A stretch of 36,160 nt of DNA from Actinomycetota bacterium (GTDB taxonomy: Bacteria > Actinomycetota > CADDZG01 > JAHWKV01 > JAOPZY01). The DNA lies in the NCBI GenBank assembly GCA_025963875.1, contig JAOPZY010000062.1:1-36160 (forward strand), written 5' to 3'. The notes under the pieces are model-generated. The model did no database searches and was not told the origin of the DNA. It saw only the letters and a list, made by a program, of their open reading frames with translations. Position numbers and translations under genes: made by a program. Each line of letters starts with the position of its first letter. Position 1 is the stretch's first letter. Below are positions 3,692 through 34,495 of this stretch, piece after piece.

Positions 3692-3693
3692 GC

Positions 3694-6600
3694 CTATTCC
3701 TCGAGCAGCTGGAGGATGCCCTGGATGGGGATCTTCATCCACTGCGGACGGTTGTTTGCCTCGTAGCCGAGCTCGTACATCGCTTTGCCGAGCAGGAAGG
3801 TGTCGAGCAGGACCTTGGTGTGGGCCTCGGAGCGGGGGATGAAGCTGGCCCCCTGGGCGACGTCGAGATAGGTGCCGAGGAACGCCCCCGCCGACCACAG
3901 GTACCAGAACCGCACCCAGTGCTGCAGCACGGAGGGGTCCCGGTCGGCGGCGATGCCCCCCACCCGTCCGTAGAGCGCGCTGTATGCCGCGTAGTTCAGG
4001 GACCGCAGCATCCCGGCCACGTCCTGGAGGGGCGACCGCTTGATGCGGCGCTCGGACAACGGGCGGGCCGGCTCCCCCTCGAAGTCGATGATGACGAAGT
4101 CCTTGCCGGTGTACAGCACCTGGCCGAGGTGGTAGTCGCCGTGGATGCGGATCCTCGAGGCGTTGATCTTCGGCTCCAGCACCCGCTGCAGCCGCCGCAC
4201 GACGTCGCTCTCGAGATCGAGGATCTGGACCGCCTCGGGGATCTGGTCGCCCAGGTCCCGCAGCAGCCGGAAGTTCTGCACGGTGATGCTGCGCATGGTC
4301 TGGTAGAGCGACCGCTGGTAGAACGGCGTCATGGGCTCGGGGGCGAAGGCGGGGTCCTCGCCGCCGGACGCCAGCGCCAGGTGCAGCTCGGCGGTGCGGC
4401 GCCCGAGCAGCCGGGCCCGGTCGAGGTAGTCGGCCATCGTCTCGCGGGCAAGCACCGGCGGCTCCACCCTGGCGGCCTGGAACAGACCGAGACCCTCCGG
4501 GATCGGCGGGTCGGGGATCTCGGGGTGGCGGACGATGGCCTCCTCGAAGAACCTGCCCAGCGAGTCCAGCGTGTAGTGCCAGGCGTCCCCGCTGTTGGGC
4601 ACGAGCTCCTGGGCGATGCCGAGCGTCATCGGCTCCCCCTTGCCCCGCCGGTACTCCAGCGCTCCCGCCACCTTCGGCACGTGCGGGAAGCCGACCCGCT
4701 CGGTGAGGAAGCGCCCGATCTCGAGGTCGGGGTTGACCCCTGCCTCGGGGCGCCGGAAGAGCTTGAAGAACAGCCGGTCGCCGAAGATCACCGACGTGTT
4801 CGACTGCTCCGCCTGCATCGGCTGGGGCTCGAGGGCCAGGGGTGCGCCGCCGGTCACCGCCTTGAAGGCCTTCGTCGGCGTGGCGAGCAGCCGCCCGGAT
4901 TGGCCCGGGATCTGGCGTCGCTTGGCGATCGCCTCCAGCAGCGCGCTGTCGAACTGCTCGTTCCAGAGTGCGTCGAACAGCATCCACTCGCCGTTCTTCG
5001 TCTTGAGGCGCGCCACCGCCGTGTCGGCGACCGCGTGGTTCAGGTCGCCGCTTCGCTGCGCCGGGGTGGCGCCGAGGGCAAGGACATAGGTCTGCGCGTC
5101 GCCCTCCACGTACTCGACCCTGACCGGGCAGATGAAGCCCAGGGGCGGCTCCGACTTGGCAGCTGCGGTCTGCGCCCGCCCGGACGCCCCCGGCCTGGAG
5201 ACCGCGATCACGTCCTCGAGCACGGTGGAGGCGATCTTCTGCGCCTTCGCCCCGAACCACCGCCGGCCCATGAGGTATTGCGGCAGGACCTCTTCGAGCG
5301 CGCCACGGCTGCGGCGGTTGAAGATCTCCTCCCACTCCCCCGCCACCTCGATGACCGGCAGCGGGGCCTCGGGGTCCTGGCGGGGCTGGCGGTCGCGCGA
5401 CGACTGCGCCTCCAGGGCAAACCAGTAGAACGAGTGGGGACCCAGGGTGAACAGGTACGGCTGGTCCCCGATGCGGGGCAGCTCCGTCTGGCCGAACAGC
5501 TCGACGGGCACGGCGCCCCGGTGTCCCCTGAGGTCGAGCTCCGCGTACTGCATGAACCGGGAGAGATTGGCGACGACGAGGATCACCTCGTCCCCGTACG
5601 TCCGGGTGAAGGCAAGCACCTTGCGGTTCTCCGGATACAGGAACTCCAGCGAGCCCCGTCCGAACGCCTGGTACCGCCGCCGCAGGACCACGAGGCGTTT
5701 CGTCCACCACAGCAGCGAGTTCGAGTTGTTGGACTGGCCCTCGACGTTGACCGCCTGGGCGTGGTACTCGGGGTCGATGACCACCGGCAGGAAGATGCTC
5801 TGGGGGTTGGCCCGCGAGAAGCCTGCGTTGCGGTCGCCGTTCCACTGCATCGGCGTGCGGACCCCGTTGCGGTCGCCGAGGTAGATGTTGTCGCCCATCC
5901 CGATCTCGTCCCCGTAATAGACGACGGGGGTGCCGGGCATCGAGAAGAGCAGCCCGTTCATCAGCTCGATCGTCTTGCGGTCGGCGCCGAGCAGCGGTGC
6001 GAGGCGGCGGCGGATCCCGAGGTTGATGCGGGCCTGCGGGTCGCCCGCGTACACGCGGTACATGTAGTCCCGCTCCTCGTCCGTGACCATCTCGAGGGTG
6101 AGCTCGTCGTGGTTGCGGAGGAACACCGCCCACTGGGCCGTGTCGGGGATCGGCGGCGTCTGGCCGAGGATGTCGAGGACGGGGAAGCGGTCCTCCATGC
6201 GGATCGACATGAACAGGCGCGGCATGAGGGGGAAGTGGAACGCCATGTGGCACTCGTCGCCCTTGCCGAAGTAGGCGCTGGCGTCCTCGGGCCACTGGTT
6301 CGCCTCGGCCAGCAGCATGCGGTTCTGGTAGCGCTCGTCGATGTGTGCCCGCAGCTCCTTCAGGATCTGGTGCGTCTCGGGGAGGTTCTCCCCGCTGGTC
6401 CCCTCCCGCTCGATGAGGTAGGGCACGGCGTCGAGGCGCAGCCCGTCGACCCCCAGGTCGAGCCAGAAGTCCACGACGCTGAACATCGCCCGCTTCACCT
6501 CGGGGTTGTCCCAGTTCAGGTCGGGCTGATGGGAGTAGAAGCGGTGCCAGTAGTAGGCCTTCGCCACCGGGTCCCACGCCCAGTTCGACGTCTCGAAGTC

Positions 6601-7086
6601 CTTGAAGATGATGCGGGCGTCCCGGTAGCGGTCCGGCGTGTCGCTCCAGACGTAGAAGTCACGGTGGACGCTTCCGGGCCGTGCCCGCCGTGCCCGCTGG
6701 AACCACGGGTGCTGGTCGGAGCTGTGGTTGAGCACCAGTTCGGTGATCACCTTCAGCCCGCGCCACCGGGCCTCCCGCAGGAACGTCTTGAAGTCCCGCA
6801 GGGTCCCGTAGGAGGGGTGGATGTCGGTGTAGTCGGCGATGTCGTAGCCGTCGTCGCGCAGGGGGGAGGGGTAGAACGGCAGCAGCCAGACCGCCGTGAC
6901 CCCGAGGTCCTGCAGGTAGTCGAGCTTGCTCGTGAGTCCCTTGAAGTCACCGATGCCGTCGGAGTCGGAGTCGGAGAATGCCCGCACCGGCACCTCGTAG
7001 ATGACGGCGTCCTTGTACCAGAGCGTGTCCCCCGAGTGAGGCTGTCCGACCAGGGTTGACTGTGCCGCGGCGGTCCTACGGGCCAT
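3694..7086 (-). CDS. treS: Trehalose synthase fused to maltokinase (TreS-Mak/Pep2)
   Basis: N-terminus [49 protein letters not shown]-terminus AEQSNTSV and [13 protein letters not shown]...IIDFEGEP (maltokinase). Confidence 0.96.
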
Positions 7087-9043
7087 AACTCACGGGGGCG
7101 TCGTGGGGGCGCAGGGCCAGGATGTGGGCGGGCAAGGCGGCGGGGTCGAGGCGAACGTAGTTGCGGGGGCCGCTCCAGGTGAACCTCGTGCCGGTCAGCA
7201 GGTCCTCGACCTGGTACGGGTCGTAGGCCGGCAGGCCGAGCGCCGCCAGGGGGAGGTCGACCCAGCCGGACTGGGCGTAGTGCGGGTCGAGGTTCACGAC
7301 GACCAGGATGACATTGGACAGGTCATCTGTTGCCTTCGTCCAGGCGATGAGCTGGTCGTTGTCCACCGGTTGGAAGGCGGGGATGGCGTCGCCCTGGAGG
7401 GCCGGGTTGTCGTTGCGGGCGAGGTTCACCCGGGCGATCACCTCGCTCAGGCTGTCCATCCGGTGCAGGTCCCAGCTGCGGATCTCGTACTTCTCCGAGT
7501 TCAGGTACTCCTCCGAGCCGGGGGTGATGGGGGCGTCCTCGCCCATCTCGAACGGCGGGCCGTAGATGCCGTAGGAGGGGCTCAGGCAGGCCGCCAGGAT
7601 CAGCCGGGCGACGAAGGCCGCCCGGCCGCCGCCTCCCTGAAGCTGCTGGGCCAGGATGTCGGGCGTGTTCGGCCAGAAGTTGGGCCGGAAGAACTCCCTG
7701 ACCTCGGTGGTGGTGAGCTCGGTGACGTACTCGATGAGCTCGGCCTTCGTCGTCCGCCAGGTGAAGTACGTGTACGACTGGGTGAAGCCGAGCTTCGCCA
7801 GGCGGTACATCACCTTCGGGCGGGTGAATGCCTCGGCCAGGAACAGCACGTCGGGGTGCTCGGCCTTCACGCCACCGATCAGCCACTCCCAGAAGGCGAA
7901 CGTCTTGGTGTGGGGGTTGTCGACCCGGAAGATCTTCACCCCATGGCCGATCCAGTAGTCCACGACCTCTTTCAGCGCCTCCCAGAGGTTCTGCCAGTCC
8001 TCGCTCTCGAAGTCGAGCGGGTAGATGTCCTGGTACTTCTTCGGGGGGTTCTCGGCGTACTGCAGGGTGCCGTCGGGCCGGGCCCGGAACCACTGGGGGT
8101 GCTCGGTGACCCACGGATGGTCGGGGGAGGCCTGGATCGCGAAGTCGAGCGCGATCTCGAGGCCGAAGCGCCCGGCCGCCACGACCAACCGGTCGAAGTC
8201 GGCGATGGTGCCGAGTTCCGGGTGGATGGCGGTGTGGCCGCCCTCAGCGCCGCCGATGGCCCAGGGGCTGCCGGGATCTTCGGGGCCAGCCTCCGTCGAG
8301 TTGTTCTTGCCCTTGCGGTGGGCGACGCCGATGGGGTGGATCGGCGGCAGGTACAGCACGTCGAAGCCGAGCCCGGCGACGTACGGCAGGCGCCGCTCGA
8401 CGTCCTTGAGCGTGCCGTGGCGGCCCGGCTCGTCCGATGCCGAGCGCGGGAACATCTCGTACCAGGCGCTGAAGCGGGCCCGGGGCCGGTCCACGACCAT
8501 GCCGTACTCCTGAGACGAGCCGGCCAGGGTGGTGTCGGCGTAGGCCGAGACCAGGGCCACCATCTCGCTGCTCAGGCCCAGCAGGTCGCCGGGGCCACGA
8601 AGCTGCTCCGCCTGGGCGAGCAACCGCTCTGCGTCCTCGCCGGGGGCGCGCTTGGCGGCTGCCTCGATCAGGTCCGCCCCGATCAGGCGGTCCACCTTGA
8701 CGTCCACCCCGGCTTCGCGCTTTTTCTGCATCCCGCGCCACCAGGTGGCGAAATGATCCACCCAACCGCGAACCGAGTACTCGTAGTTGCCGATCTCCTC
8801 CGGGACGAAGGAAGCCCGCCAGCGGTCGTTGCCCAGGTCCTCCATCGGCATCTCGGTCCACTGCTTGGCGCCGTGCCGCCGCCAGCCCAGGATGCCGGTG
8901 ACCACGTCGTGGCCGTCGGCGAAGACGTCCGCCTCCACGGTGACCGTGTCGCCCGTTATGCGTTTGATGGCGAACCGTCCGCAGTCGATCTCGGGTTGCA
9001 CACCCTCCACGACAACGCGGCGCCTGCCGTCGCTCAAGTTCAT
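7076..9043 (-). CDS. glgE: Alpha-1,4-glucan:maltose-1-phosphate maltosyltransferase
   Basis: [82 protein letters not shown]. Confidence 0.97.
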
Positions 9044-9187
9044 GCGCCTCGCCTTTATGACTTGCTCAGGGACTTGCTCGGGCCGGTCCGGATAAGGTCC
9101 ACTCTAAAGGATGCCTGCCGACCTCTCGCCCTTCGTTGCTCAGGGGTTCATACCCAAGGCCGGGGCACCATCATGCATGGGGTATTC

Positions 9188-10408
9188 GTGAAGGTCGTCC
9201 TGATGAGCCGCGAGTATCCCCCCGAGGTGTACGGGGGCGCGGGGGTCCACGTGGCCTACCTGGCCGCGGAGCTGGCCCGCTCGGTGCCCGTCGAGGTGCG
9301 CTGTTTCGGCGCCCAGCGGCCGGAATCGCGGCCGGGGGAGCCGGTGGTCAAGGCCTTCGGGGACCCCACCGCAGGACCGGGCGCCCCCCACAATGCGGGC
9401 ACCCTCCAGATCCTCTCCATCAATCTCTCGATGGCCGCGGGCCTCGACGATGCCTCGGTGGTCCACAGCCACACCTGGTACGCGAACCTGGGTGGGCACG
9501 CCGCCAAGCTCCTGTACGGCCTTCCCCACGTCATGACCTGCCACAGCCTCGAGCCGAAGCGGCTCTGGAAGGCCGAGCAGCTCGGAGCGGGGGGCCACGC
9601 CCTGTCGAGCTTCTGCGAGCGCACCGGGATCGAGGCTGCCGACGCCGTCATCGCCGTATCGGGTCAGATGCGCCTCGATGTACTGGAGTGCTACCCGGCC
9701 GTGGACCCGGAGCGGGTCGTCGTCATCCACAACGGCGTGGACCCCGAGGAGTACAAGCCGGACCACAATATCGACGCCCTGGAGCGCCACGGGATCGACC
9801 CCGCCACCCCCTCCGTCGTCTTCGTCGGCAGGATCACCCGCCAGAAGGGCATCACGCACCTGCTCGACGCGGCCGAGGACATCGATCCCGGTGCCCAGCT
9901 CGTCCTGTGCGCGAGCGCCCCCGACACCCCAGGCCTGGCCGCCCTGATCGCCGAGAAGGTCGCCCGCCTGCAGGACTGGCGGCCCGGCGTCATCTGGATC
10001 CCGGAGCCCCTGCCGCGGCGGGAGGTGATCCAGATCATGAGCCACGCCACCGTGTTCTGCTGCCCGTCCATCTACGAGCCCCTCGGGATCGTCAACCTGG
10101 AGGCGATGGCCTGCGAGGCTGCGGTGGTGGCGACGGCGACCGGCGGCATCCCGGAGGTCGTCGACGACGGCGTCACCGGGCTGCTGGTGCCCTACGACCC
10201 CGTGGCACCGGGTCCGTCCGGCGAGGTGGGCCCTTCCGACCCGGCGCAGTTCGCCCGCGACATCGCCGAGCGGGTCAACGTCCTCGTCGCCGACCCCGCC
10301 CGCGCGGATGCGATGGGCCGGGCAGGGCGGCGCCGGGTGATCGAGCAGTTCAGCTGGGAGGCCGCGGCCCGCCGGACCATCGAGGTCTACGAGGCGGTCA
10401 CGCCGTAA
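9188..10408 (+). CDS. glgA: GT4 glucosyltransferase of the actinobacterial GlgA/GlgM type (alpha-maltose-1-phosphate synthase)
   Basis: 3' part of ORF 7103..10408 from GTG 9188 (alternative ATG 9173): REYPPEVYGGAGVHV, HSHTWYANLGG, HSLEPKRLWKAEQLG, FVGRITRQKG, CPSIYEPLGIVNLEAMAC. Confidence 0.93.
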   Translation: MKVVLMSREYPPEVYGGAGVHVAYLAAELARSVPVEVRCFGAQRPESRPGEPVVKAFGDPTAGPGAPHNAGTLQILSINLSMAAGLDDASVVHSHTWYANLGGHAAKLLYGLPHVMTCHSLEPKRLWKAEQLGAGGHALSSFCERTGIEAADAVIAVSGQMRLDVLECYPAVDPERVVVIHNGVDPEEYKPDHNIDALERHGIDPATPSVVFVGRITRQKGITHLLDAAEDIDPGAQLVLCASAPDTPGLAALIAEKVARLQDWRPGVIWIPEPLPRREVIQIMSHATVFCCPSIYEPLGIVNLEAMACEAAVVATATGGIPEVVDDGVTGLLVPYDPVAPGPSGEVGPSDPAQFARDIAERVNVLVADPARADAMGRAGRRRVIEQFSWEAAARRTIEVYEAVTP

Positions 10409-15304: not shown

Positions 15305-15965
15305 CCTGTGCCTCTGCGACGAGCGAGTACTTGGCGACCTTCGCTCCCTGCTCCTGGAGCAGGATGGTGAACGAGGTGGTGCCGCCGGGTGGGATCGTGC
15401 TCCCGTCGGACACGTCGTGCGCGGCCCCCACGACGTTGCCGCCCTTGTCGTAGAAGGTGGCCACCACGTTGGCGAAGGTGACGGGCGTCGAGCTCGAATT
15501 CGAAACCGTGCCCGTGACCTCGTAGTCCGATCCGAGGGGCTGGCCCGCCTTGGACGCAACCTGCACTGTCGTGTACTGCATCTGCACCGACGGGTCTGCC
15601 TTCACGGTGGCGCTGACCTTGGCGACGTCGTGCGTTCCGCCGGTGTACGGGATGGAGAAGGGTGCCTTGGCCCCGGCGGGGAGGATCTTGAGGAGGGCGA
15701 AGCCGAACTGGTCCCCGATGGCGTGACCCGCCTTGTCGGTCAGCGAGACGTCGACCTGCACGCCCTCGATCGGCGAGTTCGAGGCGTTGCGGACCTCGCC
15801 CACGACCACCGGCCCGATCGAGGTCGGGAGGGTGTTGACCGAGACCACGGAGATCCGCTTGTCTGCGTTGTGAATGTTCTTCTCAACGGCCGCCGCCCCA
15901 CTCGAGCACGAGGCCGCGACCAGCATCCCCACCAGGAGCAGGGCTACCCGGGTGCGCGCTTGCAT
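15285..15965 (-). CDS. Lipoprotein with two FxLYD-like domains
   Basis: Signal peptide with lipobox-like VAAS-C; repeated units VVGEVRN...VSLTDKAG and VTGTVSN...VATFYDKGGNVVG. Confidence 0.8.
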   Translation of the reverse strand: MQARTRVALLLVGMLVAASCSSGAAAVEKNIHNADKRISVVSVNTLPTSIGPVVVGEVRNASNSPIEGVQVDVSLTDKAGHAIGDQFGFALLKILPAGAKAPFSIPYTGGTHDVAKVSATVKADPSVQMQYTTVQVASKAGQPLGSDYEVTGTVSNSSSTPVTFANVVATFYDKGGNVVGAAHDVSDGSTIPPGGTTSFTILLQEQGAKVAKYSLVAEAQVVNQGH

Positions 15966-15987
15966 TGTCCTGTACTACCGGCCCCTT

Positions 15988-16464
15988 CTAGTTCGATGAC
16001 TCCCGGCGATCTCGCATCCCCCGCACCGCCGTGGAGATCTCTTCGGCGTCCAGCACATCGGCCATGAGGCCCACCTGGTCGTCCCAGGTGTCGGCCGGTA
16101 TCCAGGACCTGATTTCCTCTTCCAAAATATGGTAGACGTCGAGACCCAACTGGGCCTCTGCCAATGGACCTGCGTACGTCGGGTCCCCGATGATCACGGT
16201 CTCCGCCGAGATCTCTGCGCTCTCCCCATCCGGGGCTCCGAGCAGCACCAGCAGCTTGTCCTTGCCGTGCTGGTTGACCAACCGGAGGATCGCTTCCTGG
16301 GTTCCCAGGTCCATGGCTCCCGACGCCGTTCAGACGAAGCACTCGGTGGCCGTGAACACCACATCGCTGCCGGCTGCCTTGGCGCACGCTGCGATGGCGG
16401 GGCCCGCCACGCCGTCGCGTTCGCCGAGGGCGATCACGAACTTGCCGTCGAACACTGGAGACAT
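15988..16464 (-). CDS. grdA: Glycine/sarcosine/betaine reductase selenoprotein A (158 aa, Sec at codon 45)
   Basis: From ATG 16464 (purine-rich AAAGGGGG upstream): [27 protein letters not shown]...ATECFV-TGA(16332-16330)-TASGAMDL..., continuing in frame into ORF 15988..16314 ([17 protein letters not shown]). Has the GrdA CxxU motif. Confidence 0.95.
16296..16309 (-). promoter_or_regulatory. Candidate bacterial SECIS hairpin of grdA
   Basis: CCTGG-GAAC-CCAGG begins 20 nt after the UGA; the loop starts with G. Confidence 0.6.
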
Positions 16465-16513
16465 CACCCCCTTTAAGGAAATCGGTCGTCCCTGTCGCGG
16501 CTCCATCAAGGAT

Positions 16514-17941
16514 CTACGAACCCTGATTTCGCTCGAGCAGGACGCTCATACCGTCGGATGCCTGTGTCATCCTCCCCAGAAACAGGCTTCCCTTTGCAAT
16601 CATATGCACTCGGGTCGCGTCGCCGCTGGTCAGCCGGCGCACCGCGTGCGGAAGGTAGCACAGCGCCGAGGCGAGGTGGCCCTGCGTGGGAGCGAAGCCG
16701 GGCATGCCCCGCTCGGCCATGAACTGCGGGATCGCCTCCCGGCCGATGTCCCCCCGCCGCGCGGCGAGGGCGGCCAGGGTCTTGTAGTTGCGCTCGGGAA
16801 CATTGCCCGAGCCCTGGGGCTCGGTGATCTCGGGGTTGTGGAGCTCGGTGGCGTAGTCGTCGACGTCGAGCATGCTGAGGCCGAGCTCCTCGAGCGGCTG
16901 GACGCCGAGCGCCTCCATGATCAGCGGGTTGGACGAGCCCGCCTGCACCCGGTGGCGACCGACGCCGTCGAGGCGCATCACGGGCGAGGCACCGTCGTCG
17001 GTGGTCACCAGGGCGGCCGAACCGCCCACGACGTCCTCGAGGACCGGCAGGCCATGCTTCAGGTGGCCCTGGAACTTCATGCCCAGCTTGGGTAGGGATC
17101 CCCCGCCCACCACCGCGACGTTGCGGAAGACCCCCGAAGCGACCAGCGCGCCGGCGATCACGAGCGCCGGGACGGGCGCGGCGCAGAAGTTCTTCACATC
17201 GGCGCCGGATGCCTGGCCGAGCCCGGCCGCCTCGGCGATGGTCTTGCCCATGTTGCCGCCGCCGCGCTGGTAGCGGTCGCCGACGGCCTCCTCCGAGCAG
17301 GAGATGACGTAGTCGATGCTGTCGGGATCGATCCCGTGGTCGTCGATGAGGTGCAGCAGGGCGAGGGTGCCGGTGGCCTTGCAGGCGAGGTTCTCGAGCA
17401 GCACGCCGGCGGCGAGCGCGTCGTCGGAGTCGTGGGCGTGGCGGAAGCCCGCGGCCAGCCGGTCCCGCGCGACGTGCAGCGGCAGGGAGCCGTGCTCGGC
17501 GGCCACGGCCTCGGCGTCGCCCGAGGCGGCAGCCAGCCGGTCGAGGTTCAGCCTCTTGGCGAGGGGATGCCGGGCAAGACCGGCTGCGGCGAGCTCGGCC
17601 ACCTCGTAGTCGAGGGTGACGAGACCGAACTGGTCCAGGCAGGCCAGCAGGCCGAGGAACTCCTCCTCGGGCATGATCTCGCCGCCGGAGGTGAAGCGGC
17701 CGGCGGCCGGTCCCGCCCCGACCCAGGGACGCGCCGGCAGGTCGCGGGGGTGGAGGGCGCCGATGTAGGCCTGGTGGGGCAGGTAGGCGACTGCCTCGTC
17801 GAAGCTTCGCAGCGACCCGAGGAACTGTGCCAGCACCTCGGCGTTCCGGGGCAGCTCACGGCTCGGCTTCGAGCCGTGGCGGGCGAGGCCCGGCACGTGG
17901 GCCAGCACCTGGGCGGCGTGACTGACGACGGGGTTGCCCAT
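16514..17941 (-). CDS. grdC: Glycine/sarcosine/betaine reductase component C, FabH-like subunit
   Basis: [92 protein letters not shown]. Confidence 0.93.
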
Positions 17942-17949
17942 CTACGTTC

Positions 17950-19269
17950 TCACGCTGGTGCCGGCGCCACGAGCATCGGGTCGAAGATCGTCGGCTTGTG
18001 GACCTCGGTCGAGACCGCGACCAGCGCCGTCTCCAGCAGCCGGCGGCGCCAGGCCCGCTCGGCTTCGGGATCGAGGCTGGGGTCCCCGGCGGGGAAGGGG
18101 ATGCCCCGCGTCGGCACGATGCGCGGCGCGCCCACCCTCGCCGCGATGGGCACGAGGTTCACCAGCAGGGCGGTGGGGATCCCGGCCCGCTCCAGCTCCT
18201 TCGCAAGCGTTGACCCGCAACGCGTCCCGGTCCCTCACGTGGCGGTCAGGATCGCCGCCTGGACGCCGGCACGGCGAAGCTCCGCTGCCCACTCGACACC
18301 GAAATGCGTGGCGTCGGCAACGCCGGTCCCGTTGCCGGCGGTGACGAGGTAGTCCGGGTGCAGGGCCTTGATCTCCCCGGACGCCTCCATCTCCCGGGCG
18401 ACGTCGAGGGGCAGCAGGCGGTTGGGGTCGGCGTTGGCGACCACGGTCGAGAAGCCGCCGTGGACGGACTGGAACTCGCCGGCGGCCATGGTGTCCCGGC
18501 CGGTGAGGGGGTAGCGGAACCAGTGCTTGGCCCGGGCGGATTCGAGGCGGTCGGGGTTGCCGAAGGGCACGAGCGCCCCCTCGGTGAGGATCGCCACGAC
18601 GGCTTCCCGGGGGTCGGCGATGGGGGCCGCGGGGGCCACGTGGCCGAAGTCGGGGAGCTTGATCTCGGTCGTCTTGCCGCCGGCGAGCCGGGACAGCGCC
18701 AGCAGCACGGCGCGCTGCGCCGCCGTGAGGGGGGCCAGCGAGTTGCGCCGGGCGCCGGCAGATGCACCGCCGATGACGCCTTCCGCCTCGCCGGGCGTCC
18801 CGCCCTTGGCCAGGACCGCCGCGGCGGCGGCCATCTTCGTCAGGGCGTCGCCCATGTGCCGCGCCGCGTCGCCCGAGTTGACTGCGACCGCCGGGGCCAC
18901 CTCGGGCACCCCCGGGTTCGACGGGTCCATGGCGGCGAGCGCGGGGATGCCGGCCGCCGACGCCGCGGCCGCCACCCTGGCGCAGGCGATGCCGTAGCGG
19001 CCGCTCCCGAAGGCGGGGCCCGCGATCAGCAGTTCGGCGCCGGCCTCGGTGGCCAGGGCGAGGATCTCGGCGGGGGCGTTGCGCTCGGACGCCGCATAGT
19101 CGTCGCCGCAGTACACGGTGGCCACCAGTTCGTGGCCCTCCGCCGCCAGGGCTGCGGCGAGCTTGCGCCCGGGCCCGACGGCCCCCTCGCGCGATGCGGG
19201 CAGGGTGGACGCCTTGTCCTCCCCGCCGATGCCCGCGAAGAACTGGTTGATGTAGTGGACGACCTTCAT
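17950..19269 (-). CDS. grdB: Glycine/sarcosine/betaine reductase-family selenoprotein B (439 aa, Sec at codon 345)
   Basis: ATG 19269 MKVVHYINQFFAGIGGEDKA, GPAFGSGRYG, HGGF, DPNRLLPLD, then AAILTAT-TGA(18237-18235)-GTGTRCGSTLAKELERAGIP, continuing in frame into ORF 17950..18162 (VGAPRIVP...GDPSL). Confidence 0.95.
18207..18223 (-). promoter_or_regulatory. Candidate bacterial SECIS hairpin of grdB
   Basis: GCGTTG-CGGGT-CAACGC starts 11 nt after the UGA, the spacing known for the E. coli fdhF SECIS. Confidence 0.7.
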
Positions 19270-20561
19270 TCGCTCACCATGTCCGCTCCCGACGCTGTCA
19301 GCTTTCCCCATCCGAGCGGGCTCAACGCCGCGACGATGACCGCGGTGGGCACCTCCATCGCCGCCGAGGCGTCGACGTCGAGGAGGGCGAAGCGCTCGGC
19401 GCCGTAGGCCTTCTCCACCGCCGGGAGCTGGAGTCGCTCGTCGTAGTTGCCGGTCGAGACCATGGCCGTGGCGGTCGAGGGCGGGGAGACGAGCGGCGGC
19501 GCGTTCCCGTCGGGGCCGGACATTTCGGAGAAGAGCCCCACCCCCAAGATCCCGACCTCCTCCAGCGCATCCATCTTCAGCGAATTGTCGGAGTCGGCGT
19601 TGCCCCCGCCCTCCTTCGTGATGATGGCGGCGTCCCAGCCGAGGGCGGCGCACAGCCGGGCGGTATGGGCGGCGGTCAGCTCCTTCGCCGCCTGGTCGAC
19701 CGGCTCCGGCGACAGGATCAGCCCGGCGAACTCCAGCGTTGCCGTGTCGGCGGCGCGCAGGGCCGCGACGACCGGGTTGTTCTGGTGGACGTAGGTGGGA
19801 TTGCGGAGGGCCGGGTGCCCGTACTGGCCGCTCACGATCGCCCCGTCGTCGATTTCGCAGGCGTCGATCGCCACCGGCGGGGACCCCGCCAGGCTGTGGC
19901 CGTAGAAGAAGACGTCCTTGAAGGCGCCCTGCGTCTGCAGGTTGGTGATCGCCCCGACCCTCGGCAGCGGGCCCTGGCCGCTGCGGGGGCCGGGCGTCGC
20001 AATCTCTTCGACCTCGTCCGGCGGCGCGCCGGCCGCGGCAGTGGCGTCGGCGAGGCGGGCCGCCACCCTCAGCATCCCCCGGCGCAGGGCGGCGTCGACG
20101 TTCTCCCACGCGGCGCCCTCGGCGGGCTCGAACTCGACGACGAGGTTGTGGGTGAGGCCCAGCGGCGACAGCTCGGCGGCCGGGCCGGACATCTCGACCA
20201 GCGCCTCCTGCGCCCTGGGCAGGAAGCCGGCGGCCACGACGGCGGCGCCGCGCAGCACATGGGTCTCGCCCCGCCCCTGGACCTTGGCGGGGGAGACGAA
20301 GCCCGGGAAGGCGCCCCCTTTTGGACCCTTGGACCTGGGCTCGACCGCGTCGAGCACCTTGACGATGCGGGCGCTGTCGCCGGGCGACACCCAGCTCAAC
20401 CGCACCGAGGTGAGGGCCGGGTCGGCCACCAAGGCCTCGAGCTCGGGCCTCGACGCGCTGAGCGTGCCTGCCTCGAACCCCGTTGCGTCGCCGAAGCCGA
20501 CCGCCGTCACCCGGTGAATGAGGCGCCGGAGTGCAACAGGGCTGGGCACCATGGAAACCAT
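19266..20561 (-). CDS. grdE: Reductase component B proprotein-like subunit (GrdE/GrdG/GrdI family)
   Basis: 3' part of ORF 19266..20945 from ATG 20561 (or 20552): PGDSARIVKVLDAVEPRSK, GETHVLRG, VEMSGP, DGAIVSG, PTYVHQNNP, EGGGNADSD, AMVSTGN. ATGA overlap with grdB. Confidence 0.88.
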   Translation of the reverse strand: MVSMVPSPVALRRLIHRVTAVGFGDATGFEAGTLSASRPELEALVADPALTSVRLSWVSPGDSARIVKVLDAVEPRSKGPKGGAFPGFVSPAKVQGRGETHVLRGAAVVAAGFLPRAQEALVEMSGPAAELSPLGLTHNLVVEFEPAEGAAWENVDAALRRGMLRVAARLADATAAAGAPPDEVEEIATPGPRSGQGPLPRVGAITNLQTQGAFKDVFFYGHSLAGSPPVAIDACEIDDGAIVSGQYGHPALRNPTYVHQNNPVVAALRAADTATLEFAGLILSPEPVDQAAKELTAAHTARLCAALGWDAAIITKEGGGNADSDNSLKMDALEEVGILGVGLFSEMSGPDGNAPPLVSPPSTATAMVSTGNYDERLQLPAVEKAYGAERFALLDVDASAAMEVPTAVIVAALSPLGWGKLTASGADMVSE

Positions 20562-20636: not shown

Positions 20637-21629
20637 ATGGATTCTGTGACCCGGCTCAAGACCGCCATCGCCCTCGAGAAACCCGACCGGCCGCCGTTCA
20701 CGCTGTGGGGGCACACCTTCAAGGAGGAGTGGAACCCCCAAGAGCTCGCGGCGATCACGGTGCAGCGGGCACGCCGCTACCGGCTCGACTTCGTCAAGCT
20801 CCAGCCCCGGGCAACCTTCTTCGCCGAGGCCTACGGCTCCCAGTACCAGCCCTCGGGCAGCGAAGAGGAGCACCCGACCCTCACCCGGGCCGGGGTCGAG
20901 ACGCTCGAGGACTGGGCGAAGCTCCCCGAGGTCGATGCCTCCCATCCGGCCTTCGCCGACCAGGTCGAGGCCCTCCGCCTGACCGTGGCGGAGCTCGGCG
21001 ACAAGATCCCCGTCATCCAGACGGTCTTCTCACCGCTCACGGTAGCCGGCCATCTCATCGGCAAGGACCCCGAGGGGGTTGTGAAGATGCTCCTCGACCA
21101 CCCGGATCTCCTCGGCCCCGCGCTCGCACGGATCGCCCGTGGCCTTGCCAGTTTCTCGACGGCATCGGTCAAGGCCGGGGGAGTGGGTGTCTTCTTCGCC
21201 ATCTCGGGTTACGCCTCGGCCGACATGCTGTCGGAGGAGGACTACCGCCGCCTCGCCCTCGGCCACGACCTGTCGGTCATCGAGTTGCTCCCGGAGGACG
21301 CCTGGTTCAACGTGGCCCACCTCTGCGGTTCCCGCCTGCACTTCGACATCGCCAAGGCGCTCGGGCTGCAGGCGGTGAGCTGGGACGTGTACCAGCCCGG
21401 CAACCCCACCCTGGCGGAGGGCCGTGACCACACCGGCATGGCCGCCATGGGGGGGCTGCGCCAGAAGACCACCCTGGTCAAGGCGACCCCGAAGGAGGTC
21501 ATCGCCGAGGGCCAGGCCGCCCTGGAGGGCACCGATGGCCGCGGCGTGATCCTCGCTCCCGGCTGCTCGATCGACGTCCACGCCGGCGACGACAACCTCT
21601 CCGCAGTGAAAGAGGTAGTCGCGGCGTGA
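20637..21629 (+). CDS. Uroporphyrinogen-decarboxylase/MT2-methyltransferase superfamily protein
   Basis: 3' part of ORF 19665..21629: PDRPPFTLWGH, PVIQTVFSPLT, AHLCG, MGGL, ILAPGCS. The HemE MRQAGR motif is absent. Confidence 0.85.
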   Translation: MDSVTRLKTAIALEKPDRPPFTLWGHTFKEEWNPQELAAITVQRARRYRLDFVKLQPRATFFAEAYGSQYQPSGSEEEHPTLTRAGVETLEDWAKLPEVDASHPAFADQVEALRLTVAELGDKIPVIQTVFSPLTVAGHLIGKDPEGVVKMLLDHPDLLGPALARIARGLASFSTASVKAGGVGVFFAISGYASADMLSEEDYRRLALGHDLSVIELLPEDAWFNVAHLCGSRLHFDIAKALGLQAVSWDVYQPGNPTLAEGRDHTGMAAMGGLRQKTTLVKATPKEVIAEGQAALEGTDGRGVILAPGCSIDVHAGDDNLSAVKEVVAA

Positions 21630-29181: not shown

Positions 29182-30486
29182 ATGCCTGGCATAGCCCTAT
29201 TGGGCACCCAGTGGGGAGACGAGGGGAAGGGCAAGGTCACCCACCTGATGGCCGACGCCATGGACATGGTCGTCCGGTACCAGGGGGGGAACAACGCCGG
29301 CCACACGGTCATCGTGGGCACGGAGACGTTCAAGCTGCACCTGCTCCCTGCCGGCATCCTGTACCCGCACATCACGCCGGTGCTCGCGCCCGGGGTGGTC
29401 GTGGACCCCTCCGTCCTGCTCGAGGAGATCGATGCCCTCGCCCTCCGCGGCATCTCGGCCGAAAAGCTCCGCATCTCGGGCAATGCGCACCTGATCATGC
29501 CCTACCACCGGGAGCTCGACCGCCTGACGGAGCGCCGCCTCGGCAAGATGAAGCTCGGGACCACCCGGCGGGGCATCGGCCCGGCGTACGCCGACAAGGC
29601 GTCCCGCATCGGCATCCGGATCCAGGACCTCCTGGACCGCAAGATCTTCACCGAGAAGCTCGACGTCGCCCTGCGGGAGAAGAACCTGCTCCTGACGAAG
29701 ATCTACGGACGGCTGCCGATGAATGCGGATGCGATCCTCCAGGAGTACCTGGGCTACGCCGACCGCCTGGAGCCCCATATCACCGACACGGTCGCCGAGG
29801 TCCACACCGCGCTCGACGCCGGAAAAAACGTCCTGTTCGAAGGTGCTCAGGGCATGCTGCTCGATCTCGACCACGGCACGTACCCGTTCGTGACCTCGTC
29901 GAACTGTGTCGCCGGCGGGGTCTGCACCGGGGCGGGGGTCGGCCCCCGGATGATCGACCGCATCATCGGCGTGACCAAGGCCTACACCACGCGGGTGGGC
30001 GAGGGGCCGTTCCCCACCGAGGACCTGGGCCCCGACGGCGACCTCCTGGTCGAGCGGGGTGCCGAGTTCGGTGCCACGACGGGCCGCAAGCGCCGCTGCG
30101 GCTGGTTCGACGCGGTCATCGTGCGCTACGCCGCCCGGGTCAGCTCGCTGACCGAGATCTTCCTCACCAAGATCGACGTGCTGTCGGCCTTCGACCGGAT
30201 CAAGGTCTGCGTCGGCTACGAGCACGAGGGCAAGATCTACGAGACCTTCCCGCCGCACCAGACGATCTTCCACAAAGCGGTGCCGATCTACAAGGAGTTC
30301 GAAGGCTGGAGGACCGACATCAGCGGTGCCCGGAGCTGGGCCGACCTGCCCAAGGCCGCCCAGACGTACGTCGAAAGCCTGGAGCAGATGGTGGGCGTGC
30401 CCATCACCCAGATCTCCGTGGGAGCCGAGGCCACCGAGACCGTGACCCGGCTGGCCCCGGTGACTCCCCGGAGCGCCCAGGCCTGA
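29182..30486 (+). CDS. purA: Adenylosuccinate synthetase
   Basis: [32 protein letters not shown]...[28 protein letters not shown]. Confidence 0.98.
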
Positions 30487-30505
30487 CGCTGAGAGGACTG
30501 GGTTC

Positions 30506-31816
30506 ATGAGGGTCCTCGTCGTCGGCGGCGGCGGGCGGGAGCACGCGCTGGTCTGGAGCCTCTCGAAAAGCTCCCTCGTCGCCGACCTCCTCTGCGCACC
30601 CGGCAACCCGGGCATCCAGGAGCTCGCCCGCTGCCGGCCGGTCGCCGTCGACGACCTGCCGGCCATGGTCACCATGGCCGCCCGGGAATTCGTCGACCTG
30701 GTGGTCGTCGGGCCCGAGGCCCCCCTGGTGGGGGGACTTGCCGACGCTCTGCGAGAGGCGGGCATCCGCGTGTTCGGCCCCGGGGCTGCCGGCGCCCGCC
30801 TCGAGGGTTCCAAGGGATGGGCCAAGTCCCTCATGGCCGCCGCCGGCATCCCGACGGCCGCCGCGCAGAGCTTCGACCGTGCCGACGAGGCGATCGCCTA
30901 CGCCCGGCAGCTGCTCGCGGCCGGGACCGGCGTGGTGGTGAAGGCCGACGGCCTGGCCGCCGGCAAGGGGGTCACCGTCTGCGACGACGAAGCCCAGGCC
31001 GCCACCGCCATCACCGACGCCCTGGACCGGCGGGTGTTCGGACCGGCGGGGAGCCGGGTGCTCGTCGAGGAGCGCCTCGCCGGCGAGGAACTGTCCGTGC
31101 TGGCGTTCTCCGACGGCAAGACGGTCCTCCCGATGCAGGCCGCCCAGGACTTCAAGCGGGCCCACGACGGCGACCTCGGCCCCAACACCGGTGGGATGGG
31201 GTCGCACTCGCCCGTCCCGTCCTGCACGCCGGACGTGGCCGGGAGGATCACCGACCAGGTGCTGGAGCCCGTCGCCGCCGCCCTGGCCGCGGAGGGCGAG
31301 CCGTACGTCGGCGTCATCTACGCCGGGATCATGCTGACGCCGGACGGGCCGAAGGTCCTGGAGTTCAACTGCCGCTTCGGCGATCCCGAGACCCAGGCCC
31401 TGCTGCCGAGGCTGGCGTCGGACCTCATGGAGCCCATCCTCGCCTGCACGGACGGCACCCTGTCGGGGGTGCGCCTCGACTGGCGTCCGGACGCATGCGT
31501 GGCGGTGGTGGCCGCCGCTGCCGGCTACCCCGGCACCCCCGCGACCGGCGCCCCGATCTCGGGCCTCGAGGGCGCCGAGGCGCTGACCGGGCTCCCGGTC
31601 TTCCAGGCGGGTACCCGGCCAGGTCCGGACGGGTCGGTGGTGACCTCGGGCGGCAGGGTGCTCGCCGTGGCCGCCCTCGGGGATGCTCCGTGGCTTGCCC
31701 GCCGCCGGGCTTACGATGGGCTCGCGAAAGTTTCGTTCGATGGCATGTGGTACCGGTCGGACATCGGCCCCCGGCCTGGCTTCGAGGCCGGATCTGCAAA
31801 GGGGGGTTTGGGGTGA
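30506..31816 (+). CDS. purD: Phosphoribosylamine-glycine ligase
   Basis: [55 protein letters not shown]. Confidence 0.98.
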
Positions 31817-32298
31817 CGAAAGCGCTTGACGACGGCGATCCGCTCGTCGGCATCGTGATGGGCTCGAGCTCGGACCAGCCGAAGATGCAGGCTGCGAACT
31901 TCATTCTCGAACGCTTCGGGGTCCCGTTCGAGTCCAACGTCATCAGCGCCCACCGCACGCCGGAGCAGGCCCACGAGTACGCCAAGCTGGCCGAGGACCG
32001 TGGCCTGGAGGTCATCATCGCCGCCGCGGGCCGGGCCGCCCATCTCGCCGGGGTGATGGCCGCCAACACCATCCTGCCGGTGATCGGCGTGCCCATCTAC
32101 ACCGACCATCTCGGCGGTGCGGACTCCCTCTACTCGACGGTGCAGATGCCGTCGGGGGTGCCCGTCGCCACGGTCGGGCTGTCCAATGCCACCAACGCCG
32201 CCATCCTCGCCGTGCAGATGCTGGCCCTCGCCCGGCCTGAGCTGCGCCACCAGCTCCGCAACTTCAAGAAGGAGCTCAGCCAGGGGCTCAAGATTTGA
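31813..32298 (+). CDS. purE: N5-CAIR mutase / AIR carboxylase catalytic subunit
   Basis: From GTG 31813: [41 protein letters not shown]. Confidence 0.97.
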
Positions 32299-33599
32299 TC
32301 GACCGCTACACGCGGCCTGCGATGGCCGCCGTCTGGAGCGAGGAGCGCAAGCTCTCGCACTGGCTGCGCATCGAGATCCTCGCGGTGCAGGCCCGGGTGG
32401 AGCGCGGCGAGGTCCCCGCAGAGGACCTGGCCGAGATCCGGGCGAAGGCCGCCTTCGACCTCGAGCGGGTGGCCGAGATCGAACGCACGACCCGCCACGA
32501 CGTCGCGGCGTTCCTCGACAACGTCGCCGAGTTCGTCGGCCCGGCCGCCCGGCACCTCCACTACGGCATGACCTCCTCCGACATCCTCGACACGACGCTC
32601 GCCCTCCAGCTCGTCGAGGCGGCCGACCTGCTCCTCGCGGGCATCGTGGCGGTTCGGGACGTGGCGGTCCGCCTCGCCCGCCGGTACGAGTCGACGCCGA
32701 TGGTCGGGCGCACGCACGGCATCCACGCCGAGCCGACGAGCTTCGGCCTCAAGGCGGCGGGCTGGGCCTTCGAGCTGGAGCGGGGCCGGGTGCGGATGCA
32801 GCGGGCGAAGGAGTCCGTGGCCGTCGGCAAGCTCTCGGGCGCCGTCGGCAACTACAGCCAGCTCCCCCCCGAGGTCGAAGCCTCCGTCTGCCGCGAGCTC
32901 GGCCTGGCGGCCGACCCCGTCTCCACGCAGGTCGTCGCCCGGGACCGCCACGCCGAGTTCTCGGCGGCGATGGCCGTCGTCGCGGCGTCGATCGAACGCA
33001 TCTTCACCGAGATCCGCCACCTCGCCCGCACCGAGGTCCGGGAGGTGGAGGAGCCCTTCGCCGAAGGGGCGCAGAAGGGCTCGTCGGCCATGCCGCACAA
33101 GCGCAACCCGTGGCGCTCCGAGCGGCTCTGCGGCCTGGCCCGCGTGGTGCGGGCCGGTGTCGTCCCGGCCCTCGAGAACGTCGCCCTGTGGCACGAGCGG
33201 GACATCTCCCATTCCTCGGTGGAGCGGGTCACCCTGCCCGACTCCTGCCTCGCCCTCGACTTCATGCTCGGCGAGGCCGAGGAGCTGCTCGAGGGACTCC
33301 GCGTCTATCCCGAGCGGATGCTCGCCAACATCGAGGCGTCCGGGGGGGTCGTCTTCTCCCAGTCGGTGCTGCTCTCGCTCATCGATGCGGGCATGAGCCG
33401 CGACGAGGCCTACCGCATCGTGCAGGAGTCGTCGATGGAGGCGTGGCGCACCGGAGGCCACCTGCGGGACCTGCTGAAGTCGTCGCCCGCTGCCAAGCGC
33501 CTGGAGCCGGCGGCCATCGATGTCTGCTTCGACCCGTCACGTTACCTGCAGCACGCCGGGGAGGTCGTCGCCCGGCTGGCAACCTTGGAGGAGACATGA
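32295..33599 (+). CDS. purB: Adenylosuccinate lyase
   Basis: [53 protein letters not shown]. Confidence 0.98.
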
Positions 33600-34495
33600 G
33601 CCAGACCACCGCTGTCAGCACCGTGGAGGTGGACCTCCCCCACCTGTCGTCGGGCAAGGTCCGCGAGCTGTTCGACCTGGGCGGCGACGGCCTGCTGTTC
33701 GTCGCCAGCGACCGCATCTCGGCCTACGACGTCGTCATGCCCCAGGCCATCCCCGACAAGGGCCGGCTGCTGACCGGCATGAGCATCTTCTGGTTCGGGG
33801 CGACCTCCGACATCTGCCCCAACCACTTCCTGTCCGCCGCCTCGAACGAGCTGCCCAGGGCGGTTCGGGAGCAGGTCGAGGCCCTCCAGGGGCGCCACAT
33901 GGTGGTCCGCAAGCTCGACATGCTGCCGGTCGAGTTCGTCGTCCGGGGCTACCTCGTCGGCTCCGGCTGGAAGGACTACCGGCAGACGGGGGCCGTCTGC
34001 GGGATCCCGCTGCCGGAGGGCCTCGTCGAGGCCGACAAGCTGCCGGAGCCCATCTTCACCCCAGCCACGAAGGCGACCGTCGGCCACGACGAGAACATCA
34101 GCGAGGCGCAGGCCGCCGAGCTGTGCCCGCCGGGCACCCTCAAGGTCGCCCGTGACTACGCCGTCGAGCTCTACAAGCGGGCCGCCGGCTACGCCAGGGG
34201 CCGGGGGATCATCATCGCCGACACCAAGTTCGAGTTCGGCCTGGCCCCCGACGGCGAGGTCACCCTGGCCGACGAGGTGCTTACCCCCGACTCCTCCCGT
34301 TTCTGGCCTGCGGACCAGTGGGAGCCCGGCGCCAACCCCCCGTCGCTCGACAAGCAGTACCTCCGGGACTGGCTCGACGTCCAGGGCTGGGACCACAAGC
34401 CCCCGGCCCCCGACCTGCCACCGGACGTGGTGGAGCGGACAAGGGCGGGCTACGTCGAGGCCTACGAGCGCCTGACGGGCCGCACGTTCAGCTAG
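33596..34495 (+). CDS. purC: SAICAR synthetase
   Basis: From ATG 33596 (RBS GGAGGAG): SGKVRELF, SDRISAYD, VRGYLVGSG, FTPATKA, ADTKFEFG, DEVLTPDSSRFW, DKQYLRDWL. Confidence 0.97.
   Translation: MSQTTAVSTVEVDLPHLSSGKVRELFDLGGDGLLFVASDRISAYDVVMPQAIPDKGRLLTGMSIFWFGATSDICPNHFLSAASNELPRAVREQVEALQGRHMVVRKLDMLPVEFVVRGYLVGSGWKDYRQTGAVCGIPLPEGLVEADKLPEPIFTPATKATVGHDENISEAQAAELCPPGTLKVARDYAVELYKRAAGYARGRGIIIADTKFEFGLAPDGEVTLADEVLTPDSSRFWPADQWEPGANPPSLDKQYLRDWLDVQGWDHKPPAPDLPPDVVERTRAGYVEAYERLTGRTFS

Follow-up and report, generated by a model that had tools for sequence, protein, structure and literature searches.

The stretch of DNA analysed here, referred to below as the window, is contig JAOPZY010000062.1 (C120 in our numbering) of assembly GCA_025963875.1, from an Actinomycetota bacterium. 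It is 36,160 nucleotides long with a G+C content of 70%; the source assembly amounts to 3.84 Mb in 273 contigs and is estimated to be 94.6% complete. On the minus strand of the window lies an operon with the gene order grdE'-grdB'-grdC-grdA. Our subject is grdB', which encodes a subunit of the selenoprotein B family and in which an in-frame UGA, the predicted codon for selenocysteine (Sec, U), opens a UxxGxxC motif where canonical GrdB has UxxCxxC. U+3 and U+6 denote the third and sixth residues after Sec, and SECIS stands for selenocysteine insertion sequence. The features of the operon are these:

20561..19266, minus strand: grdE', alpha-type subunit of component B, 431 amino acids (Pfam PF09338, 3.1e-91)
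19826..19821, minus strand: CAG TAC, Gln246-Tyr247 of grdE', at the position where canonical GrdE has its pyruvoyl-forming Asn-Cys
19269..17950, minus strand: grdB', selenoprotein B-family subunit, 439 codons, predicted Sec codon 345, true stop TGA at 17952..17950
18237..18235, minus strand: in-frame TGA within grdB', predicted Sec codon 345
18228..18226, minus strand: GGG, Gly348 at U+3 (Cys in canonical GrdB)
18223..18207, minus strand: predicted SECIS hairpin, GCGUUG / loop CGGGU / CAACGC, 17 nt, stem beginning 11 nt past the UGA
18219..18217, minus strand: TGC, Cys351 at U+6, a codon within the 5' arm of the SECIS stem
17941..16514, minus strand: grdC, component C beta subunit, 475 amino acids (NCBIfam NF040746, 561.3 bits, cut-off 450)
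16464..15988, minus strand: grdA, selenoprotein A, 158 codons with one internal TGA (PF04723, 1.8e-54)

The grdB' start codon, ATG at 19269, overlaps the stop codon of the upstream grdE' (ATGA). The grdB' product matches Pfam PF07355 (GRDB) at 4.2e-100, with 335.8 bits against a cut-off of 22, and the grdA product carries the motif ECFVU (CxxU), its TGA lying at 16332..16330. Scores against the more general and the more specific models of the two component B subunits were as follows:

TIGR01918 (various_sel_PB): 378.2 bits, above the cut-off of 65.45, model positions 1-431
TIGR01917 (GrdB, glycine): 348.3 bits, below the cut-off of 602.2
NF040794 (GrdF, sarcosine): 381.3 bits, below the cut-off of 800
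NF040795 (GrdH, betaine): 342.2 bits, below the cut-off of 775
NF040793 (GrdG, alpha subunit): 200.8 bits, below the cut-off of 780
NF053623 (FarE, alpha subunit): 105.9 bits, below the cut-off of 675

The window protein aligns to the GrdB and GrdF models from end to end (positions 1-431 and 4-435), and every UxxG representative tested likewise scored below the GrdB, GrdF and GrdH cut-offs. Among the controls, L058, L067, L062, L098 and L101 pass the GrdB cut-off and L100 passes that of GrdH (854.7 against 775). The family profile, the UGA with its SECIS and the adjoining GrdE/G/I-type partner gene place grdB' in the selenoprotein B family. Of the marks of a GrdB equivalog, GrdC is present in the window, while the score falls short, UxxCxxC and the Asn-Cys of the partner are replaced and GrdD was not found.

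For comparison we used the best 80 of 593 confirmed relatives, taken from species-representative genomes; 78 of these loci reach the Sec site and two, L020 and L029, end before it. The homologous codon is TGA in all 78, as expected from the original prediction, which had been made from the letters of the window alone and had placed the UGA at the conserved Sec site. Its reading of ACC GCC ACG TGA GGG ACC GGG ACG CGT TGC on the minus strand as T-A-T-U-G-T-G-T-R-C was also correct, the residues around the UGA being T-A-T-U-G-T-G-T-R-C-G-S-T-L, as was the length of 344 amino acids that it gave for a truncated product. The 94 codons past the UGA are in frame, and the G+C content of their third positions (GC3) is 0.92. 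Between the window and its relative L002 (90% identical) these 94 codons show 17 synonymous and 7 non-synonymous changes, a pattern like that of the 344 codons ahead of the UGA (79 and 36, respectively). In six more distant relatives, compared over 85 codons past the UGA, synonymous changes number 25-35 and non-synonymous ones 14-21. All 120 database homologues among the matches listed extend over no more than 78% of the query and end at or before residue 344; by this measure the whole family is cut by gene callers at the Sec codon. Finally, 18173..18263 is spanned by contigs from four public runs, two of DNA from other studies and two of RNA libraries. Among the differences listed for these contigs none falls within 18026-18255, nearby ones all being at third codon positions; the list omits 33 differences with less support, and the contigs serve as supporting evidence. 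The two RNA-library contigs cross the UGA; DNA carry-over is possible, and the contigs show presence rather than transcription, strand or level.

Bacterial SECIS elements, in the bSECISearch literature, are hairpins shortly downstream of the UGA with a G in the apical loop. From the window alone a SECIS-like hairpin had been proposed whose stem (GCGTTG/CAACGC, loop CGGGT) begins 11 nt beyond the UGA, and it is present at 18223..18207; its apical loop reads CGGGU or GGN across the relatives. Folded on its own, the 71-nt sequence past the UGA gave no significant structure (z = -1.2, with 31 of 200 shuffles doing equally well), so that support for the hairpin comes from comparison. No Rfam family was matched in 15900..18400 at E <= 1. 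In a gapless alignment of 79 sequences, covering 66 nt from the UGA, 90.8% of the cells of a 7-pair stem are standard pairs, compared with 27-60% in controls in which the partners were slid. Compensatory changes were seen at three of the seven pairs, 15-31 (GC<->UA, 9), 18-28 (UA<->CG, 7) and 19-27 (UA<->AU, 1), and the covariation score was reached by 0 of 500 shuffles. On this comparison the hairpin is the conserved SECIS of the family, as had been surmised.

The stem also leaves its mark on the codons. At U+6 the codon is TGC in 78 of the 79 sequences and TGT in none, even in AT-rich Bacillota; the cysteine at U+3, by contrast, is encoded by TGT in 20 of 25 cases. Where U+6 is serine (AGC), in L051 within the alignment and in L106 outside it, the partner base in the 3' arm is changed and the pair is kept. 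Since the U+6 codon lies within the stem and is compensated in this way, the conservation of Cys351 is in part a constraint on the RNA, and the codon of Arg350, CGT in 72 of 79 sequences, is under a like constraint. The U+3 codon lies in the spacer ahead of the hairpin, and the stem therefore puts no pairing constraint on it.

Selenium machinery was found elsewhere in the genome. A profile search of the contigs placed selB and selA side by side on contig C167, both above cut-off, and selD (TIGR00476, above cut-off) at C179:4504-5433 (locus L091). This selD has one in-frame TGA, and SelD is probably itself a selenoprotein, a third Sec gene besides grdA and grdB'. The best candidate for a tRNA-Sec, at C37:10587-10661 (positions 1501-1575 of locus L093, minus strand), is 75 nt long and scores 40.6 bits, below the cut-off. 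It has the anticodon UCA (loop CUUCAAA) and a long variable arm, lacks 16 positions of the D arm and is not called by ARAGORN; it is an atypical selC or else a remnant. Because the TGA is conserved, the SECIS covaries, the downstream codons are constrained and selA, selB and selD are present, we conclude from comparative data that UGA345 is the Sec codon of the family and that grdB' is a functional selenoprotein gene.

The codon for Gly348, GGG, is two substitutions away from TGC or TGT, as the original prediction had noted. Among the 79 aligned sequences U+3 is Gly in 54 (GGC 33, GGA 10, GGG 8, GGT 3) and Cys in 25 (TGT 20, TGC 5), and the use of all four glycine codons points to selection on the glycine itself. 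A maximum-likelihood tree was built from the 76 full-length rows (L020 and L029, without the site, and L021, L054 and L055, shorter than 400 amino acids, were excluded). The window falls in a clade of 47 rows, all reading UGTGTRC, with a support of 100 by the Shimodaira-Hasegawa-like approximate likelihood ratio test (SH-aLRT) and with Gly fixed at U+3. This main clade spans Solirubrobacterales, Thermoleophilales and Acidimicrobiia (Actinomycetota), Dormibacterota, Chloroflexota and Gemmatimonadales (Gemmatimonadota), and the row closest to the window is L002, an Actinomycetota metagenome-assembled genome. Further UxxG sequences make up a 3-row clade of Gaiellaceae type (support 100) and the pair L051 (Dehalococcoidia, UGTGTRS) and L077 (Formimonas). 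The canonical UGTCTRC forms a 21-row clade (support 99) of Bacillota, Synergistota and Desulfovibrio, whose GrdB genes carry the STUGTCTRC expected of them, and a second UGTCTRC group of 3 rows from Binatia and Thermodesulfobacteriota. The residue at U+3 changes 2-3 times on the tree, compared with about 21 times when the labels are shuffled. It had been asked beforehand whether UxxG defines a clade or is scattered among canonical GrdB; it is fixed in a clade and occurs in a few other deep lineages, and no scatter was seen. Between the main clade and the canonical clade, 20 positions of GrdB and 19 of the alpha subunit are fixed differently. Thr347, Thr349 and Arg350 are invariant in the 76-row alignment, and Cys351 has a single exception (L051).

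The same motif prevailed in a sample of 301 evenly drawn Actinomycetota genomes. There were 13 matches to the family at E <= 1e-20, of which 11 were full-length with at least 332 bits (the genome of the window included) and two short (75-77 bits). Of the ten others, G158, an unpublished genome, enters only this tally; the loci of the remaining nine were read and all nine are UGTGTRC; the gene order is E-B-C-A in eight, and the ninth, L114, has no grdA within the stretch examined. A survey of 1.84 billion protein representatives gave 169 relatives at E <= 1e-30, most of which end at the Sec site. In a few that continue through it, with another residue in place of Sec, the site reads CGTCQRC (P0125), CGTGTRC (P0185 and P0170), TGTGTRS (P0201), CGTSTRC (P0263) and GGTCTRC (P0233), so that U+3 varies in the family at large. 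UxxG-type forms with Cys in place of Sec may exist; C at the Sec position of these records could be a true Cys or a converted U. In five proteins of about 700-800 amino acids (P0123, P0133, P0177, P0203 and P0222) the C-terminal half matches GrdB. P0222 has a GrdE-like part ahead of its GrdB part, with W at the Sec position; the other four may be real fusions of this type or gene calls that were joined. The comparisons as a whole indicate that UxxGxxC is a selected, clade-defining feature of an uncharacterised Grd branch.

The glycine at U+3 goes together with a change in the partner subunit. Cleavage of the GrdE-type protein at Asn-Cys is reported to give rise to pyruvoyl. The available text of PMC10838667, citing Bednarski 2001, likewise derives the pyruvoyl group of the GrdE-type proprotein from Asn-Cys cleavage. 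Canonical alpha subunits read DGAI(V/I)SGNCVSAC at this site. The alpha subunit of the window reads DGAIVSGQYGHPAL at the aligned site (Gln246-Tyr247), and those of the main clade read SGQ[Y/F/H/L]GHP. None of the three cysteines conserved in the canonical alpha subunits (aligned to window residues 247, 251 and 330) is retained in the main clade; counting Cys348 of GrdB, four conserved cysteines are gone together. We examined 95 loci or window genes; in eight of these no alpha subunit was visible, and in one the site fell in an alignment gap. The 86 that could be read are distributed as follows:

UxxG (xxC or xxS), alpha subunit without Asn-Cys: 61 loci
UxxG, alpha subunit with Asn-Cys: 0 loci
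UxxCxxC, alpha subunit with Asn-Cys: 21 loci
UxxCxxC, alpha subunit without Asn-Cys: 4 loci

The co-occurrence with a Cys-less GrdE that the original prediction had proposed as a check is therefore found in 61 of 61 UxxG genes; the Formimonas paralogues L105, L106 and L107 provide more pairs of a UxxG gene with a Cys-less alpha subunit. The last group of four consists of L100 and the Binatia-type clade. As L100 passes the GrdH cut-off, the data set contains a bona fide betaine reductase whose alpha subunit lacks the cysteine and whose GrdH keeps UxxCxxC.

A further difference concerns GrdD, which is said to form acetyl phosphate. A search with NF040747 found no match at E <= 1 in the genome of the window and none above cut-off in five of five clade relatives; GrdD was recovered from five of five genomes with canonical systems, which served as the positive control. 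The order of the genes also differs, being E-B-C-(thioredoxin)-A in the clade and E-A-B-C in canonical systems. A thioredoxin gene of about 125 codons lies between grdC and grdA in L011 (6697-7068), L019 (6705-7079) and L033 (6670-7047), and many other clade loci have a gap of about 350 bp there. In the window the two genes are only about 50 bp apart and the cluster has no thioredoxin gene.

An AlphaFold2 model of the window protein, built from an alignment with database homologues, has a mean predicted local distance difference test score (pLDDT) of 94.6, with 398 of 439 residues at 90 or above. In the model a strand (338-342) leads to Sec345 at the N-terminal end of a helix (346-361), with Gly348 in its first turn and Cys351 in its second. 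The N-terminal end of a helix is the site of the redox-active CxxC in many thiol oxidoreductases. By this geometry, taken at the level of secondary structure, the canonical cysteine at U+3 is placed to form a selenenylsulfide with Sec, and Cys351 lies one turn further on. The glycine-rich start of the helix, together with Arg350, may bind the carboxylate of the substrate. A sequence search of the PDB gave no match for GrdB' or GrdE', and a Foldseek comparison of the model with the PDB returned only weak two-lobed alpha/beta look-alikes with TM (template modelling) scores of 0.15-0.21, so there is no solved structure from which a mechanism can be borrowed.

Around the operon the window contains genes of other kinds. 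Divergent from grdE' is the following gene:

20637..21629, plus strand: URO-D / MtaA-CmuA-type methyltransferase-like gene (PF01208, 5.7e-34)

Its product resembles MtaA, CmuA and MtbA, all NCBIfam subfamily matches being below cut-off. A tblastn search with this product found the gene beside the operon in one of the 80 related loci, L002; we treat it as context, and it may not belong to the Grd system. At 3-9043 (minus strand) and 9101-10405 (plus strand) there is a block for alpha-glucan metabolism: a GlgB-like protein (CBM48 and alpha-amylase), a MalQ 4-alpha-glucanotransferase, an 1130-residue protein of the alpha-amylase family, a GlgE maltosyltransferase and a GT4 glycosyltransferase. 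A purine biosynthesis run at 29182-34495 (plus strand) encodes adenylosuccinate synthetase, GAR synthetase, adenylosuccinate lyase and SAICAR synthetase. The window's own stretch was found in soil metagenome runs of 12 studies.

It is instructive to set the system of the window beside those already described. Glycine reductase GrdE/GrdB, of Peptoclostridium/Eubacterium acidaminophilum and Clostridium sticklandii, has the same two-subunit build, the same Sec codon and SECIS hairpin and the same GT.TRCG start of the helix, and it too occurs alongside GrdA (CxxU) and GrdC. The window differs from it in having Gly and not Cys at U+3, SGQY and not SGNC in an alpha subunit that is no pyruvoyl precursor, the order E-B-C-A and not E-A-B-C(-D), no GrdD that could be found and, as host, a high-GC soil actinobacterium. 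Betaine reductase GrdH/GrdI, of which L100 (alpha subunit SGSF) is our example, resembles the window in its alpha subunit without Asn-Cys and in its SECIS; GrdH, however, keeps UGTCTRC, and the window protein lies in a separate clade. D-proline reductase PrdA/PrdB (TIGR04480/TIGR04483), a selenoprotein with a pyruvoyl partner, is a distant homologue of both subunits, to which the window gives partial matches only (PrdB 71 bits against a cut-off of 300, PrdA 27 against 700).

In two described systems cysteines are missing as they are here. The proposed fluoroacetate reductase FarE/FarB of Cloacibacillus porcorum MFA1, as presented in the available text of PMC10838667, combines a GrdB-like selenoprotein without post-Sec cysteines with an unprocessed GrdE-like subunit, a combination found in part in the window. 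The same text describes FarB as without CxxC and FarE as without the processing cysteines and "similar to GrdI", and proposes that FarEB attacks X-CH2-COO- directly. On that account FarB lacks both cysteines, whereas the window protein keeps the second, and the phylum differs; moreover, the FarEB operon includes the antiporter gene farA and the radical-SAM gene farC, neither of which lies beside the operon of the window. "Candidatus Formimonas warabiya" DCMF (PMC6778437) has three UxxG paralogues with Cys-less alpha subunits (L105/L077, UGTGTRC; L107, UGTGTRC; L106, UGTGTRS), which are 43% identical to the window protein and lie outside the main clade, and the same genome has canonical paralogues. 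In the available text of PMC6778437, UxxCxxC serves as the test for GrdB/F/H; two Formimonas B components are left unassigned, and one without UxxCxxC is called "likely a pseudogene". UxxC/UxxCxxC is listed for GrdB in the accessible part of PMC13188914, and GrdB is listed in few phyla in that of PMC1794560. No description of the UxxGxxC clade or of its actinobacterial system was found in the literature searched, subscription papers and theses aside.

Taking these results together, we consider it likely that the grdB' system is a pyruvoyl-independent Grd-type selenoenzyme of an uncharacterised branch of the family, with a substrate that is not glycine. In view of the four lost cysteines and the missing GrdD, the latter in the Actinomycetota-type lineage, the motif probably marks a subfamily that works without pyruvoyl on another substrate, and is less well read as a tuning of glycine reductase. 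The suggestion of the original prediction, that the variant alters the redox protection or the reactivity of the selenol, is probably too narrow, and the substrate is probably one other than glycine. A mechanism can be proposed by analogy with GrdHI and FarEB and from the features that are missing. With no pyruvoyl carbonyl, a primary or secondary amine could not be activated as a Schiff base. As in GrdHI, and as proposed for FarEB, the enzyme would instead cleave a substituted acetate, X-CH2-COO-, in which X is already a good leaving group, and the selenolate of Sec345 would attack the alpha carbon of this activated acetate derivative directly. The carboxymethyl group would then pass to the CxxU selenoprotein GrdA, from which it would be released reductively, with thioredoxin as reductant, and taken up by GrdC. 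Since no GrdD is present, the end product would probably not be acetyl phosphate formed by the textbook route. The cysteine at U+3 seems to be needed only alongside pyruvoyl chemistry and to be replaced elsewhere, here by a selected glycine.

Several observations weigh against this interpretation. No member of the branch has a known substrate, product or activity, and the class of substrate is deduced only from absences; another carbonyl or activating group may be formed by a different route. The backbone of the tree has a support of 71, and because the loci are kin, representing some 5-6 independent UxxG lineages, the coupling to the alpha subunit is a suggestive pattern and not a statistical result. 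Directly upstream of the UxxG grdE'-grdB' of L077 (Formimonas, G006:C1:5007504-5008649) lies a grdC-grdD pair; UxxG can thus occur without loss of GrdD, and that loss characterises the Actinomycetota-type clade, not UxxG in general. Around six clade loci the flanks are dissimilar, with no conserved transporter or catabolic neighbour among the flanking open reading frames scanned. Lastly, no tRNA-Sec reached the 47-bit cut-off of Rfam RF01852 in the 94.6%-complete assembly, and ARAGORN reported none among 43 tRNAs.

The system might alternatively be an isofunctional betaine reductase, a distant equivalent of GrdHI that converts glycine betaine to trimethylamine and an acetyl unit. An alpha subunit without Asn-Cys would fit, as GrdI has this form beside the bona fide GrdH of L100 (SGSF), and so would the divergent URO-D/MtaA-type gene beside the operon in the window and in L002. 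Relatives of URO-D/MtaA act in methyl transfer from methylamines and quaternary amines, and betaine is a common osmolyte in soil. We nevertheless think this identity unlikely: GrdH gives the weakest score of the three specific NCBIfam models, the sole locus above its cut-off (L100) retains UGTCTRC, the methyltransferase-like neighbour recurs in just one of the 80 related loci, and the flanking open reading frames scanned included no betaine transporter. A glycine or sarcosine reductase, with its amine activated by some other carbonyl or mechanism and with the change from Cys to Gly as a quirk of the lineage (an adaptation to exposure to oxygen, for example), seems to us less plausible again. 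Scores far under the equivalog cut-offs, the absence of the Asn-Cys site and of two more conserved alpha cysteines, the 20 GrdB and 19 alpha positions fixed differently from the canonical clade, and the failure to find GrdD in the genome itself or in five clade relatives all run counter to the end-to-end alignment with the GrdB and GrdF models, the canonical GrdA and GrdC, and the JGI annotation of close homologues as "glycine reductase". A carbonyl signal was reportedly also seen in the 47-kDa subunit, which would favour such an enzyme.

Two more trivial explanations have been considered. That grdB' is decaying, or yields only the 344-residue product, could be argued from the pseudogene call made for a Formimonas B component without UxxCxxC in the available text of PMC6778437 and from the failure of any tRNA-Sec to reach the cut-off in the assembly. 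Decay is nonetheless very improbable, given 94 downstream codons that are in frame with a GC3 of 0.92 and mostly synonymous changes, a SECIS that covaries, a motif invariant in more than 50 genomes of four phyla, intact selA, selB, selD and grdA, and the 40.6-bit tRNA-like gene with anticodon UCA. An error of sequencing or assembly that turned TGC or TGT into GGG is more remote still; we found no point in its favour, and it would have to contend with Gly at U+3 in 53 other loci from independent assemblies, in nine of nine loci of the phylum sample and in L106 and L107 of Formimonas, as well as with the contigs of the four public runs, which have no listed difference at this site.

Since 1999 UxxCxxC has counted as an obligatory mark of selenoprotein B, and in the available text of PMC6778437 its absence is read as a sign of a pseudogene. 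The natural UxxGxxC form described here is the rule in a large clade, is strongly selected and goes strictly with an alpha subunit that has lost the pyruvoyl-forming site. There are consequences for annotation, since gene callers split these genes at the UGA and the pieces are named "glycine reductase" or "betaine reductase". Going beyond the pyruvoyl-independent enzyme of the window, we propose more tentatively that a selenium-dependent Grd-type reductase is widespread in uncultured, probably aerobic soil Actinomycetota and neighbouring phyla. Having no pyruvoyl, no cysteine at U+3 and no GrdD, it may cleave an unrecognised X-CH2-COO- compound (a quaternary ammonium, a sulfonium or another activated acetate) and release the C2 unit without acetyl phosphate made by GrdD. 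The clade offers a handle on two questions, the role of the first cysteine and the use that soil bacteria make of an expensive selenoenzyme. If the proposal is true, the first cysteine of UxxCxxC would serve the pyruvoyl/imine chemistry and would not be a general shield of the selenol.

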